A stretch of DNA of 64,000 nucleotides from positions 1 through 64,000 of the IMG/VR virus record IMGVR_UViG_3300028886_000004, one strand, 5' to 3'. Made by a program: the position numbers and the translations under genes. Numbering within the stretch: the first letter of the stretch is position 1; every line of letters begins with the position of its first letter. The stretch comes from a virus (Duplodnaviria; Caudoviricetes). Positions 2,609-55,862 of this stretch are shown here, piece by piece. Under the pieces are notes generated by a model that saw only the letters and a program-made list of their open reading frames with translations, did not search any database and was not told where the DNA came from.

Positions 2609-3355
2609 ATGACAGACTTAGAACTTTGGAAATTCCACGATATCCACTTTGACCCGGTTCCGCATAAATATACGGACTCCCTCGGGACAAATTTCACATC
2701 CGTAACCTCTTGGGTAAAGAATTTCGAATCCGTGCAGGATTGGGATGAAATTGCAAAGAAGTCGGCCGCAAAGAACGGCTGCACCCCGGAAGAACTTCGT
2801 GCAAGGTGGAAACGCGCCGGCGATTACTCTTGTGCCTTGGGCACGGAGGTTCACGCCTATATGGAAAACCTGATGCAGCACAAACGCTACATCCCGCATT
2901 TCGATCCGCAGTATCCTGAAATGGAAGGCGACTACAACTCTCGCATCCCCGTTTGCAATAATGCATACCGGATGATTACCCAAAAATACATCCCGGTGCG
3001 TGAGGAATTGATTGTCTATAACTCCAACTGGAAATTGTGCGGCACGATCGACCTGCTCGCCTACAATACCGAAACCGGCCAGTTCGCCATCCTTGACTAC
3101 AAGACCAACAAGGAAATCAAGAAGGACAATCCGTGGCAGAACATGACCGGCCCGTTTGCGAACTATCCGGACTCGAATTACTACCACTACAGCCTCCAGT
3201 TATCCACGTACAAGGCTATCATTGAAAACGCGACGAATTTGCGCATTGGCGATTTGATGCTCATTCACATTACCGCTCACGGCGCCGTGATGATTCCGTG
3301 TATCGACTTCTCGGGCGTGGTGCGTAATATGCTGGAGACGCAATATGGCCGTTAA
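2609..3355 (+). CDS. PD-(D/E)xK exonuclease (phage RecB/Cas4-like nuclease fold)
   Basis: SVTS, GTEVH, E-x9-GTIDLL...ILDYKT, YSLQLSTY motifs; ATG 7 nt after TATATT. Confidence 0.88.
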   Translation: MTDLELWKFHDIHFDPVPHKYTDSLGTNFTSVTSWVKNFESVQDWDEIAKKSAAKNGCTPEELRARWKRAGDYSCALGTEVHAYMENLMQHKRYIPHFDPQYPEMEGDYNSRIPVCNNAYRMITQKYIPVREELIVYNSNWKLCGTIDLLAYNTETGQFAILDYKTNKEIKKDNPWQNMTGPFANYPDSNYYHYSLQLSTYKAIIENATNLRIGDLMLIHITAHGAVMIPCIDFSGVVRNMLETQYGR

Positions 3356-49600: not shown

Positions 49601-50371
49601 ATGTTGGAATTGACAACCTACACCGAGCTGGAGATCGCGCACCGCCTGCTGACCTCCTATGCGCAGAAATGCCGCCATCTCCACGGACATCGCTATGAAG
49701 TCGAAATCACCGTGGCGTCCCCTCGCGGCTTGAATAAGGACGGAATGATCGTGGACTTCAAGCAGTTGAAGGAAGTGGTCAAGGAAGTCCTCGACGATAA
49801 GTGGGACCACGGCGCCTGCTTCAATAAGGCGGACCGCATTTCTGAATTCATGTTGAAGGACGCGGAACGTGAACGCCTCCATCTCATCGACGACAACCCG
49901 ACCCTGGAATGGATGGTTGGCAGGTGGGTGGAAGACCTGAACGCCGCCTTCCGTGCAAAGGACATTGACTTGGTTGTCACCAAGCTGAAGGCAAGCGAAA
50001 CCGCCAAGAACACCGTTACTTGGACGCTTGATGAAAAGGTCCGTGTGTTTGCGGACAAGCCTGCACTTGAAGTTGCGGGCCTGCCGTCGCAGCGCGTGGA
50101 TGACACGAAGAAGCGCCTCGATGCCGCGTTGCGCCCCGCACCCACGCATGATTGGGCATCCCCGGATGCCAGTGTGAAAGTGGAAGAAGTCGATCCGGAC
50201 GCTGTCCCGTATTTGGTTTCCTTCTACAACAACCACACTATCGGCAGCACAGTTGTCCACTCTTCTTTGAAGGCTCAGGCGCTGTATGATTTTTGCACCG
50301 GTGCCGTTCAGCCGCTGGACAAGAACGAAGAAGCTGTTGTAGTTATTGGAATCAATCGTTTGCCGGGATAG
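49601..50371 (+). CDS. queD: 6-carboxy-5,6,7,8-tetrahydropterin synthase QueD with C-terminal extension
   Basis: AHRL, CRHLHGHRY, GMIVDF..LK, WDH, NPTLE, SET. Confidence 0.9.
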   Translation: MLELTTYTELEIAHRLLTSYAQKCRHLHGHRYEVEITVASPRGLNKDGMIVDFKQLKEVVKEVLDDKWDHGACFNKADRISEFMLKDAERERLHLIDDNPTLEWMVGRWVEDLNAAFRAKDIDLVVTKLKASETAKNTVTWTLDEKVRVFADKPALEVAGLPSQRVDDTKKRLDAALRPAPTHDWASPDASVKVEEVDPDAVPYLVSFYNNHTIGSTVVHSSLKAQALYDFCTGAVQPLDKNEEAVVVIGINRLPG

Positions 50372-53007: not shown

Positions 53008-53705
53008 ACAAGCCGAATCCTGAATTACTGAAAAAGGTCCGTGATGGGCTGGCACGCTACAACGAAGCGCGTAAGGTCACGCATAGCGATTGGGGCAAGG
53101 AAGCCAAGATCGTTGACGAACTCAACCACACCTTGTGGAAAGCAATCCTCCCGGATGCCGTCAAGCATTTGGAGGATATGGTCGGCCACAAGATCCAGCA
53201 CGTCGAAAAGGACGGCGATGTTATCCTTTTGAGCGTCACGTCCCTCAAGTTTGAAAAGTGGGAAGTCAATCTTGTCGGTGAAGGCGTCCGCTATACCGAC
53301 CGCCACTCCTCCCCGCTTTCGAAATTGTCCTATGTGACCATCAAGTATGATTCCTTGAATGAAGTGCTTGGTATGATTAAGATCGCCGATACTGCCACGG
53401 TTGAAGATTTGGTCGCGCATGTTGAAAAGATGCGTGCGGCACAGCTGGAAGCGGCAACCAAGCAAATCAATGACAAGTATGATGGCGTGATCGCATCCAT
53501 CCGCAATATGAAGGAACCGAAGGAGGTGGTAAGCCTTGCCGACCGCTTCCATCCGGATCCGCTCCACGAAATTACGTATTTCCGCTGGAGTGACCTCGTC
53601 CGCGAGTTCGGCACCGAGGAAGACAAGAAGGCGCTTGAACCTGCCCCGGTTGATGTGGTGGAAGAAGACAACGATCCGGCGACGGCAGCAACATTGGAGG
53701 CATAA
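53004..53705 (+). CDS. hypothetical protein
   Basis: GAGG RBS, coupled. Confidence 0.75.
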   Translation: MNKPNPELLKKVRDGLARYNEARKVTHSDWGKEAKIVDELNHTLWKAILPDAVKHLEDMVGHKIQHVEKDGDVILLSVTSLKFEKWEVNLVGEGVRYTDRHSSPLSKLSYVTIKYDSLNEVLGMIKIADTATVEDLVAHVEKMRAAQLEAATKQINDKYDGVIASIRNMKEPKEVVSLADRFHPDPLHEITYFRWSDLVREFGTEEDKKALEPAPVDVVEEDNDPATAATLEA

Positions 53706-54157
53706 TGAGACAATACGCCATAGTCGATATTGACGGCACGATTTCCGATGCCAATGCCCGCGCAAAAACATACCTAGAAGGCGATAATCCGGATTGGGAT
53801 GGCTTCTATGCGGCGTGTGGCGAAGACGCGCCTATAACGCCGGTTATTCGCGTTATAGAGGCGCTTGCCGTGAGCTACAACATTGTGTTCTGTACCGGGC
53901 GCCGTGAATCGTGCGAAATCGCCACCCGCGAATGGCTGAACCGCCACGCGCCTGCCCTTGCCCATTGGCCTATCCTTTTCCGCAAGGATGGCGACGATCG
54001 CCACGATGTGATTGCGAAACCGGAAATGCTGGAAGCCTATGTGCATGCGCACCACAACATCAAGCCGTCGGTGATTTTTGAGGACCGCAATTCAATGGTC
54101 GAAAAGTGGCGCGAGCTCGGCTACACCGTGTTCCAGCCTGCCAACGGGGAATTTTAG
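53705..54157 (+). CDS. HAD phosphatase, polynucleotide kinase 3'-phosphatase-like (T4 PseT C-domain)
   Basis: VDIDGT, TGR, DVIAK, FEDR...WRELG..VFQ. Confidence 0.88.
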   Translation: MRQYAIVDIDGTISDANARAKTYLEGDNPDWDGFYAACGEDAPITPVIRVIEALAVSYNIVFCTGRRESCEIATREWLNRHAPALAHWPILFRKDGDDRHDVIAKPEMLEAYVHAHHNIKPSVIFEDRNSMVEKWRELGYTVFQPANGEF

Positions 54158-54165
54158 GAGGAACT

Positions 54166-54459
54166 ATGAAACAGCATGTTGGACTCGAAATGCCGATGGT
54201 GGGACTTGTTCTCAAGAACGGGAAGACGATTTGTGGCGTGCCTTGCGGGTTTGAATCCGAACACGTCGCTATGGACGATCCTTCAAAGAATGAGTACATC
54301 CAATATATTGTATTCCCGTGGACGAAGGTTTCCTGCAATGACATTGATGAGGTGCTTACCTATGACGAAGGCGGGGAACCGCATCGTTTAAAGGTGGATG
54401 CTGCGATTTCGGCGCACATCCACATTTGGTTCCTCAACAAGGAATTCAAGAAGGCGTAG
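54166..54459 (+). CDS. hypothetical protein
   Basis: AGGAGG RBS. Confidence 0.7.
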   Translation: MKQHVGLEMPMVGLVLKNGKTICGVPCGFESEHVAMDDPSKNEYIQYIVFPWTKVSCNDIDEVLTYDEGGEPHRLKVDAAISAHIHIWFLNKEFKKA

Positions 54460-54477
54460 CGGAACCTCGTATATAAA

Positions 54478-54690
54478 GACATCCGGAGGCACGCGTTGTT
54501 CTTGGTGCCTTAAAAGATGGAGCAAGAAGGAAAGTCGCTGCCTTGCGGCCCGTCGCGCGGGAACTGGCACGATGATTACGAAGGATGTGAGAGAGAAGGC
54601 GGGGCAAGTGCCCCAACGCCGGAATCCGGTGAGGGCGAAAGCTAACAAAGGGCCAATCCAACGCAGACGTGTAGAGGGTTGGCCCCTTTC
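54478..54690 (+). ncRNA. unnamed structured RNA A
   Basis: follows TATATA; ACATCC/GGATGT stem, several hairpins, terminal GGGCCAATCC/GGGTTGGCCC-CTTT. Confidence 0.5.
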
Positions 54691-54703
54691 GTATATTAAG
54701 GAC

Positions 54704-54819
54704 AGCTGGCAGGTCCATCCAAAAAGAGCCATCTAGCGAAGCAACCCAACGGTTGTCGCCTCATTGCTTCAAGGCGCTTCCCGCGGGGCTATTTGGCTGA
54801 TTTTGGGTGGACCACAGCT
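54704..54819 (+). ncRNA. unnamed structured RNA B (rod-like, about 116 nt)
   Basis: TATATT at 54692; AGCTG/CAGCT, GGTCCATCCAAAA/TTTTGGGTGGACC, AGCCA/TGGCT, GAAGCAA/TTGCTTC. Confidence 0.6.
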
Positions 54820-54830
54820 TCCAGTTCCTT

Positions 54831-55185
54831 GGGGATGCTTGGTATCGACAGGGATGCTGATGCATGAGTTGCACGTCGAGGTCTCAGCCGTGGGCACTCG
54901 TTAAAAAGGTTGAAAAAGAATAAATGCTGCACCTGTAGCAATGGCTGCCTAATTTTAGGGTAACCCTTGGATCCGCCTCCATTCCCGGAGGGGTGGCATC
55001 CGAGTCGCAAACCGGGATAGGGTTGAATCTTGGCAACGAGGAGAAGACCTGAAATTTGTCGTTGCTGGCCGAAGCATCGCCGCTTCCCTTTGGGCGTGGC
55101 AAGGCAAGAACAAATACAGGGAATAAGCGTGTAGTAGCAAATGAGTAGGTGTTTTTGGACGCGGGTTCGACTCCCGCCATCTCCA
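54831..55185 (+). ncRNA. ssrA: tmRNA
   Basis: GGGGATG/CATCTCC-A acceptor with G3-U, GGTATCGAC D-loop analogue, GCGGGTTCGACTCCCGC T-arm, tag ORF 54926-54952 encoding AAPVAMAA* after TAAAT. Confidence 0.95.
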
Positions 55186-55192
55186 CGAATAG

Positions 55193-55282
55193 ATACGTGC
55201 CCGTTGGCCCAATAGGCTGGCGGACACCCGGGAAGGTCCGTTGGAATTGCTCCGACTAGGGGCCGGGGAAACGGGCACGTAT
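55193..55282 (+). ncRNA. unnamed structured RNA C
   Basis: perfect 13-bp closing stem ATACGTGCCCGTT/AACGGGCACGTAT with internal hairpins. Confidence 0.55.
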
Positions 55283-55295
55283 TATTGAATTTTCC

Positions 55296-55386
55296 GGCCT
55301 GCTGCCGGTAGTACCGCCCTTCAGCACGGGGTAGAGCGCACGGATGGGGTTCGAGTGTTTTCCGGCGATGCGCAAAGGCAGCAGCC
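55296..55386 (+). ncRNA. unnamed structured RNA D
   Basis: CTGCTGCC/GGCAGCAG closing stem; internal hairpins, one with GGTTCGAG. Confidence 0.5.
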
Positions 55387-55389
55387 ACT

Positions 55390-55414
55390 AGGGTTCCAAA
55401 AGGAACCCTTTTTT
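55390..55414 (+). terminator. rho-independent terminator of the RNA cluster
   Basis: AGGGTTCC-AAAA-GGAACCCT-TTTTT. Confidence 0.85.
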
Positions 55415-55450
55415 GTTGAAAAGCAAGAAAATTATTTTTTTTTCTAGAAA

Positions 55451-55526
55451 GGGGTGTCTTTTTCAAATCAAGTAGTTATATTTAGGGTATGAGGCGCCGG
55501 GTAGGCGTCCAGCCAAGGAAAGACAT
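55451..55526 (+). promoter_or_regulatory. conserved promoter cassette, copy 3
   Basis: GGGGTGTCTTTTTCA-N11-TATATT, GGCGCC hairpin, CAAGGAAAG RBS. Confidence 0.85.
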
Positions 55527-55862
55527 ATGAAGAAGACTCGCGGAAACCTCTATTGGAATTTTCAATTCACCGGCCTTTTTGATGGCGCCGAAGATTGCTA
55601 CGCCAACGAAGAAGCCAACATCTCTGTGAGCAGCCACGATTTCGCCACGGCCTACGCTCAGGCTGAAGCAATGTATAACGCGCTGCTCAAACTTCATCCG
55701 GATCGTGTTTATTGTGCGCAGGTGTATCTCCGTGATGATGACACTGTCAAACCGAGCGCAAACCACCACATTTACGTCACCCACTATATCGATTCCGATA
55801 AGATCAATGCCTTCTTCGCTGTAGGCGCCGATAGATGCCTGCGCTTGACTTGGCGTGCCTAG
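55527..55862 (+). CDS. hypothetical (putative early) protein
   Basis: directly after promoter cassette. Confidence 0.75.
   Translation: MKKTRGNLYWNFQFTGLFDGAEDCYANEEANISVSSHDFATAYAQAEAMYNALLKLHPDRVYCAQVYLRDDDTVKPSANHHIYVTHYIDSDKINAFFAVGADRCLRLTWRA

Follow-up and report, generated by a model that had tools for sequence, protein, structure and literature searches.

The window analysed here is the first 64 kb (64,000 nucleotides) of an IMG/VR phage record of 134,991 bp that carries direct terminal repeats. The phage is uncultured and comes from the rumen. We found no credible gene in positions 54460-55415, a stretch flanked by the stop of a 97-aa ORF (54459) and by the next gene (55527). Related phages show indels of 1, 3, 4, about 125 and about 100 nucleotides here, together with compensatory changes in helices, so that the ORFs lying over this stretch are not credible. 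It holds a tmRNA gene and four folded segments, A, B, C and D, that belong to no Rfam family. ARAGORN, Rfam, folding and the comparison with relatives all confirm the initial annotation on this point, which had described a noncoding stretch with a tmRNA among four structured RNAs. The features are as follows, with fold z-scores computed against dinucleotide shuffles.

53705..54157, plus strand: HAD/PNKP-type polynucleotide 3'-phosphatase, 150 aa (PF25109, 3.2e-25; PHROG 415, 8.6e-33)
54166..54459, plus strand: 97-aa ORF, used as an anchor for relatives (eleven homologues, 79-90% identity)
54469..54477, plus strand: promoter-like box 1 (GTATATAAA), member of the GTATATWWW motif, before RNA A
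54480..54697, plus strand: RNA A, about 210 nt, fold z = -4.4, conserved in relatives
54691..54699, plus strand: promoter-like box 2 (GTATATTAA), member of the GTATATWWW motif, predicted to serve the B-tmRNA-C-D unit
54700..54825, plus strand: RNA B, rod-like leader hairpin with a branched tip, fold z = -5.1, optional cassette
54831..55188, plus strand: one-piece tmRNA (ssrA), called by ARAGORN and Rfam RF00023
55190..55287, plus strand: RNA C, stem-closed cassette, fold z = -4.4, consensus fold
55297..55386, plus strand: RNA D, four-way-junction RNA 3' of the tmRNA, covariance model R1
55390..55415, plus strand: intrinsic terminator, 8-bp GC-rich hairpin and T run

With a permissive threshold of E<=10, Rfam gave nothing meaningful in 54300-55600 besides the tmRNA, and blastn of 54400-55500 against 50,697 phage records matched only the T-arm region of the tmRNA, in four records. 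The phage genome contains neither a second copy of A, B, C or D nor an antisense match of 12 nucleotides or more to any of them. The proposal that these are novel phage ncRNAs is upheld: the segments are structured, conserved and noncoding, and the Rfam search suggested at the outset matches them to zero families even at this permissive threshold. Homologous loci of related phages also show covariation, with paired double changes in D, in A and in C', a cassette that takes the place of C in some relatives, and with one compensatory pair in C.

The tmRNA scores 143.8 bits against RF00023 (cut-off 47) over model positions 1-374, acceptor and T arm included; its end is placed at 55186 or 55188. 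ARAGORN places an 8-residue tag frame, AAPVAMAA*, at gene positions 96-122, and this tag is identical among all close relatives. The 3' end of the gene reads CUCCAC|GAA, so that CCA is not encoded, a trait common to all tmRNA genes linked to D; we assume that CCA is added post-transcriptionally to the phage tmRNA. Since no phage-encoded SmpB was found, the phage tmRNA must rely on host factors. A second or permuted tmRNA was considered and rejected: matches to the tmRNA_permuted model reach only 19-23 bits against a cut-off of 47, and they combine the real tmRNA's T arm with chance similarity, no coding piece coming after it.

How is this region transcribed? Both promoter-like boxes belong to a motif, GTATATWWW, of which the genome has 26 copies where its base composition predicts about 5.5. 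Start codons follow most copies at a distance of 20-70 nucleotides, and the motif often comes right after a terminator hairpin; the TATATT box noticed ahead of B in the initial annotation is real and part of this enriched set. Box 1 is kept in all relatives; box 2 overlaps the tail of the RNA A terminator. The single strong terminator reported after D is also there, at 55390-55409 (8 bp, 5 of them GC, followed by TTTTTTG), and in relatives its stem is conserved while its loop varies (AAAA, TTTT, AAAT). From these signals we read two stable-RNA transcription units, RNA A alone and B-tmRNA-C-D. RNA A would form a separate unit, outside the B-tmRNA-C-D precursor, because a box of its own precedes it and a covarying hairpin with a U-rich tail closes it, and a single precursor is the natural reading for B, tmRNA, C and D, as proposed initially, because one promoter-like box and one strong terminator bracket them. 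The likeness drawn there to a phage tRNA cluster is apt as well, other lineages keeping a tmRNA-D pair inside true tRNA arrays.

In RNA A, the 5' 130 nucleotides are nearly invariant among eight aligned variants and include an invariant stretch of 43 nucleotides, purine-rich and largely unpaired. A motif in this purine-rich stretch, UACGAAGGAUGU, bears a resemblance to the CsrA binding consensus. The 3' hairpin (54650-54686) and the U-rich tail that follows it to 54697 constitute RNA A's own terminator, whose stem covaries; the tail reads CTTTTTTG in most relatives and a weaker CTTTCG in the window. Double changes affect seven pairs, mainly in the terminator hairpin and in a CCCG/CGGG hairpin. 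RNA A is confined to the window phage's own group, and other contexts lie upstream of the tmRNA in L026/L033 and in L069 (L and G numbers are our handles for contigs and records).

Several identities were tried for RNA A and rejected. A 42-codon frame (54517-54645) has neither a Shine-Dalgarno sequence nor an excess of synonymous changes, and L015 and L023 carry a 4-nucleotide insertion that shifts it; a conserved peptide is excluded by indels (4, 3 and 1 nucleotides) and by the pattern of substitutions. A hammerhead core is suggested in L015 by CUGAUGAG...GAAA, whereas GGUGAG is found in the window and CUGAUAAG in L023, and Rfam gave no hammerhead match in the window or in L016. RNase P RNA, SRP RNA and 6S RNA were discarded for A and B alike, Rfam being empty at E<=10. 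HEARO (RF02033) gave no match at E<=10 in 54300-55600, while the same library scores 121.6 bits in L044. A 24-nucleotide match to RNA A in G002 falls in a low-complexity coding region.

The upstream genes and the tag-coding pattern served as anchors and led us to more than 20 related contigs in independent metagenomes, of the rumen and of other origin. The 97-aa ORF has no match in either Pfam or PHROG; a synteny search through the downstream 111-aa ORF found no relatives. Among phages whose tmRNAs are at least 95% identical, the modules are arranged in the following ways.

Window phage: A, then B-tmRNA-C-D
L032: A, then B-tmRNA-C'-D
L017-L021 and L025: A, then B-tmRNA (contig end)
L006, L015 and L034, and the partial contigs L035, L037 and L039: A, then tmRNA-C'-D
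L016: A, then tmRNA-C-C'-D

B and C/C' thus assort independently: B occurs with C or with C', and B-less phages carry C' or both C and C'. This points to recombination among co-circulating phages. RNA B is present in the window phage, L017-L021, L025 and L032 and cleanly missing from L006, L015, L016, L023 and L034, where about 11 nucleotides separate the box from the tmRNA. Its presence varies even between near-identical phages. Only two variants of B are known, and they do not share the basal stem.

The C and C' cassettes (97 and 109 nucleotides) occur as alternatives or in tandem. In C, a closing stem of 13-14 bp (55192-55205 with 55271-55284), in agreement with the long stem first noted there, encloses three inner helices. 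C is also found in L016 and L046, and is replaced by C' in L006, L015, L032 and L034. Between L046 and the window, C is 92% identical, D 75% and the tmRNA 55%, which implies either lateral movement of C or an unusually strong constraint on it. In L044, closely related to L046, C is missing from the same junction (CACGAAT^TTATGTCC versus CACGAAT-[C]-GAATTTATGTCC). C ends in a 13-nucleotide inverted repeat and has GAAT on both flanks at the same junction in both phages; these GAAT flanks could equally represent an ambiguous recombination junction. Its variants show one compensatory pair and several G-U transitions. A diverged C' in L069 differs by double changes at five pairs and keeps a 16-nucleotide strand, CUAAAUACUGGCGGAU, invariant. 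C and C' do not form one family, as the C' model, R2, does not detect C, and they share only the string AAUA..CUGGCGGAYA. An R2 match in L051 (16 bits) was not convincing. We conclude from these comparisons that phages swap C and C' and that the two belong to separate families of conserved, structured RNA.

RNA D consists, in order, of a closing stem of 9-10 bp, a mini hairpin GGUAGNACC, a 5-bp arm bearing an invariant 7-nucleotide loop (UCAGCAC), AGA, a long variable arm and RAA. Its junction linkers (0, 0, 3 and 3 nucleotides) are unlike those of tRNA. The invariant UCAGCAC, GGUAG and AGA exceed what the fold requires. Taken alone, D is not thermodynamically unusual (z = 0.0), and it is covariation that supports the structure: over 11 distinct sequences, pairing extends to 93.6% of cells, compared with 33-48% with slid partners, in an alignment fitted to the model and hence favouring the structure, and a MAFFT alignment points in the same direction. 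Compensatory double changes are seen in 10 of 23 pairs. The loop of the 5-bp arm might also kiss the apical loop of the long arm (GCAC with GUGU), an interaction whose register shifts across lineages and that we do not claim.

Seven phage lineages with differing tmRNAs carry D on the 3' side of the tmRNA, and the tags of these tmRNAs are AAPVAMAA, AAPVAQAA, ANDAFACRMAA, ADNAFAYAVAA and ANNAYACRMAA. L026 (139 kb) and L033 (a 407-kb contig) have tmRNAs 74.5% identical to that of the window, with D directly after. Scans with the covariance model R1 and a D core pattern produced four further large phage contigs with D 3' of the tmRNA.

L044: 224 kb, tag ANDAFACRMAA
L045: 75.5 kb, tag ADNAFAYAVAA
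L046: 203 kb, tag ANNAYACRMAA
L069: 132 kb, tag AAPVAQAA

In these four contigs D adjoins the tmRNA or is separated from it by one C/C' cassette, and the tmRNA-D pair lies in or beside tRNA genes, which form long arrays in L044-L046. When no cassette intervenes, D starts 6-10 nucleotides past the tmRNA discriminator. A looser D pattern has 27 matches in IMG/VR: five, namely four already known contigs and L069, have a D that matches R1, always beside a tmRNA, and the other 22 contigs, searched for both, showed neither a D match nor a tmRNA. The D core pattern has no occurrence in 185,579 prokaryote genomes (one per species), and D is missing downstream of bacterial tmRNAs with tags ending in AAPVAMAA. 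Our literature search found no published description of an element 3' of tmRNA. In seven diverged lineages, phage tmRNA genes are followed by D, which represents a so far uncatalogued family of structured RNA. The sequences CUCCACGAA and AAAUGCU are common to all D-linked tmRNAs, and a single ancestor may have given rise to the tmRNA-D pair; the linkage would then partly reflect inheritance and not repeated selection.

Is D, or C, a tRNA mimic, as had been suggested? ARAGORN calls no tRNA anywhere in the window, and the tRNA model of Rfam has no match at E<=10. The idea also fails because L033, L045 and L069 do not retain the T-loop-like GGUUCGAGU or the CCA that comes after D in the window. 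Nor does anything in the analysis point to decoys against RNA-targeting defences. Among the roles proposed at first for these RNAs, that of processing elements appears the most plausible.

The explanation we favour, with about as much confidence as doubt, is a stable-RNA operon cut by tRNA-processing enzymes of the host, in which D would be kept for a role linked to the tmRNA. B-tmRNA-C-D would be made as a single precursor. RNase P would cut the 5' end of the tmRNA, and RNase Z or exonucleases, together with the CCA-adding enzyme, would finish its CCA-less 3' end, while RNase III or RNase E could act at the long closing stems. Every module 3' of the tmRNA opens with a stable helix 4-10 nucleotides past the preceding module, and the modules can therefore be seen as punctuation, which would release the ends of the tmRNA and shield them. 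By analogy with T4 RNAC and RNAD, they may persist as small stable RNAs. The invariant loops of D and its strict linkage to the tmRNA suggest a further role in tmRNA maturation or use. D cannot simply set the tmRNA 3' end through cleavage at the 5' border of D, since cassettes of 100-200 nucleotides are tolerated between the two (in the window, L006, L016, L046 and L069), and RNase P or RNase Z need not recognise it, as its linkers are not those of a tRNA and neither ARAGORN nor Rfam calls one.

The alternative that survives best, which we nevertheless consider rather unlikely, is that B, C and C' are selfish or passively exchanged DNA cassettes with little or no function for the phage, either small non-autonomous mobile elements or products of recombination, in co-infecting phages, through the conserved tmRNA 3' end and the D core. 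It is compatible with the explanation favoured above for D. The independent assortment of B and C/C' in near-identical phages fits this idea well, as do the identity of C, far above that of its neighbours in L046, and its insertion in two phages at one junction with GAAT flanks and a 13-nucleotide inverted repeat. A mobile-element RNA has indeed landed at this locus in L044, where a HEARO RNA (RF02033, 121.6 bits) lies within the tmRNA 5' region. However, every cassette is single-copy in the phage genome, and for C, considered as a MITE-like element, no dispersed copies were seen. The core pattern of C has no occurrence in the collection of 185,579 prokaryote species genomes and was found in one other viral contig only. 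No transposase or homing-endonuclease gene was found nearby, and the compensatory changes and invariant strand of C' in L069 indicate selection on the RNA.

Alternatively, the RNAs may be effectors acting in trans: decoys or sponges for SmpB, for a tRNA/tmRNA nuclease, for an RNA-binding regulator or for a defence sensor, with A as a regulatory sRNA. The loop nucleotides of D, invariant beyond the needs of the fold, would be explained in this way, as would the near-invariance of the RNA A 5' domain while neighbouring sequence diverges, its presumed CsrA-like motif and the fact that these phages have no SmpB of their own. We regard such a role as unlikely. No target was found, the phage genome offering no antisense match of 12 nucleotides or more, and the gene context showed nothing related to defence or anti-defence. 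The complementarity between the D loop and the tmRNA (CAGCA with UGCUG) extends over 4-6 nucleotides without covariation, and pairing of this loop with the resume region or with a 5' segment was rejected, its register being inconsistent.

A further proposal, also unlikely in our view, makes D a dedicated partner of the phage tmRNA, whether a device acting in cis, possibly catalytic, to mature tmRNA precursors that lack CCA, or a cofactor or regulator acting in trans on hijacked trans-translation. If true, D would be a virus-specific, previously undescribed component of the tmRNA system, and C and C' would be exchangeable accessory RNAs of that system.

Could D, or a cassette adjacent to the tmRNA, be a self-cleaving ribozyme of a new type, with its own 5' edge as the cleavage site? 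The 2',3'-cyclic phosphate left on the tmRNA trailer would then be healed by a PNKP-type phosphatase before CCA addition. D is a compact junction RNA with its conserved nucleotides clustered at the junction and in the loops, it begins close behind the discriminator where no cassette intervenes, and the tmRNA genes lack CCA. In the window, moreover, the PNK-type phosphatase announced two genes upstream in the initial annotation is indeed encoded at 53705-54157, with a phosphatase domain only. Its linkage to the tmRNA, however, is not conserved among other D-bearing phages: in G001, 20 kb separate the PNKP gene from the tmRNA, and the partial records G002 and G003 yielded no such gene. Neither a tmRNA nor A, B, C or D occurs in more distant PNKP neighbourhoods (L007-L013). 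The ribozyme families of Rfam (hammerhead, HDV-like, twister, twister-sister, pistol, hatchet) gave no match in scans at E<=10, 1 or 5 of the window region, L044-L046, L069 and L016, the helices of D correspond to none of the known ribozyme topologies that could be tested, and many lineages have cassettes between D and the tmRNA. We judge self-cleavage very improbable.

That the flanking segments are functionless spacer with chance folds is barely credible, even though D alone has a z-score of 0.0 and the two variants of B do not keep their basal stem: for A, C, C' and D this is largely refuted by covariation (in D and C' and in RNA A hairpins) and by conservation (of D across tmRNAs that are 55% identical, and of the A 5' domain), and the z-scores of A, B and C range from -4.4 to -5.1.

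Phage tmRNA genes are widespread and their role is poorly understood, and T4 RNAC and RNAD, like other small RNAs encoded in phage tRNA regions, have gone for decades without an assigned function. D is a module that has stayed attached to the tmRNA gene although the tmRNAs have diverged to 55% identity, and it offers a concrete experimental handle on this problem. The phage gene at hand resembles other phage tmRNAs (e.g. in large actinophages) and bacterial ssrA in being a standard one-piece tmRNA with a tag frame. The bacterial genes with related tag ends (L028 and L030) differ from it in that they encode CCA, followed by a plain terminator (the two that are readable), whereas the phage genes are CCA-less and run into C, C' or D.

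The closest known parallel may be T4 RNAC and RNAD, small RNAs of the tRNA region that are expressed and of unknown function (PMC3014915, PMC9697503). In both cases small structured RNAs lie beside tRNA-type genes in a large phage whose head genes are of the T4 type; RNAC and RNAD are co-transcribed with these genes, as we infer from sequence to be the case here. The present locus differs in that the partner gene is a tmRNA to which D is tied across lineages, no such linkage being described in T4, and, the tmRNA T arm apart, blastn of 54400-55500 against the 50,697 phage records revealed neither similarity to a cultured phage nor homology to RNAC or RNAD. Plant mitochondrial t-elements and the C4 RNAs of P1/P7, which are processed by RNase P, are likewise stem-closed, cloverleaf-shaped modules at transcript borders, sites open to cleavage by nucleases of tRNA maturation, but the linkers and loops of D differ from those of tRNA, and cleavage here is only predicted. 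HEARO, or IscB-associated omega RNA, has a similar length to RNA A and takes its position in L044; RNA A, however, has no HEARO match and possesses its own promoter-like box and terminator. Finally, C recalls MITE/PATE-like elements by its inverted repeat, its GAAT flanks and its presence or absence at one site in two lineages, but differs from them in being single-copy, restricted to one specific site and subject to compensatory changes at the RNA level.

Exchangeable cassettes of this kind imply that entire modules are shuffled as stable-RNA operons of phages evolve, in the same way as in phage protein operons. RNA family libraries could gain at least three families (C, C' and D) and the putative sRNA A, and these additions could serve to annotate ORF-free stretches of large phage genomes.

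The promoter-like motif GTATATWWW, found ahead of both RNA A (the ~210-nt RNA upstream of the RNA B-tmRNA unit) and that unit itself, occurs 26 times in the whole phage genome, against about 5.5 copies expected. One subclass has GGGGTGTCTTTTTCA about 10 nucleotides upstream, and another lies directly after a terminator hairpin, forming terminator-promoter modules.

Window 6372, 12044, 12124, 20683, 24284, 26893, 54469, 54691, 60581, + strand: GTATATWWW copies
Window 2673, 43619, 45150, 63077, - strand: GTATATWWW copies

Two observations concern the tmRNA 5' side in L069 and L044, diverged phage contigs carrying the pair of tmRNA and four-way-junction RNA D. The promoter-like box of L069 lies 5' of a small Lys/Ala-rich ORF, whose stop codon is 8 nucleotides upstream of the tmRNA start; this tmRNA appears to be excised from an mRNA. 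In L044, a HEARO RNA sits immediately 5' of the tmRNA and is preceded by a degenerate duplicate of the tmRNA 5' end (GGTGAGATGTTTAGTTTCGACTGGGCATCGGACC vs the real GGGGGTGCTTGGTTTCGACTGGACATCTGACC). The tmRNA gene seems to have taken an insertion by a mobile element that supplied a substitute 5' part.

L069:1498-1716 (-): tmRNA start region behind the small Lys/Ala-rich ORF
L044:2737-2965, within 2693-3105: HEARO/IscB-omega-type RNA (RF02033, 121.6 bits)

At two loci with D near tRNAs, the interval from D to the next tRNA is helix-rich in appearance and holds only a few short overlapping ORFs (~80-136 amino acids). The first ~80 nucleotides are kept in the two phages (GACCUGAGGACCCAUC...), and these intervals are probably additional uncatalogued RNAs.

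L053:2060-3370 (~1.3 kb): D-to-tRNA interval without tRNA or tmRNA call
L051:2080-2920 (~0.8 kb): the same

RNA A variants of two close relatives resemble a hammerhead core at the string level (CUGAUGAG...CGAAA in L015, 5440-5500; CUGAUAAG in L023), where the window RNA A has GGUGAG.

Long tags such as AKTTGKAFNFGFANAAPVAMAA, with the phage's entire 8-residue tag as their C-terminal end, are encoded by four environmental, probably bacterial tmRNAs. The tag of the phage appears to be an abbreviated form of these, a likeness that may hint at the phage's host group.

L028:6149-6558; L030:8146-8552; L029; L022: environmental tmRNAs

Finally, a 7-deazaguanine modification pathway is suggested in the window phage because it carries a QueD-type gene.

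Window 49601-50371: 6-pyruvoyl-tetrahydropterin synthase (QueD-type) gene (Pfam PF01242, 6.5e-23)
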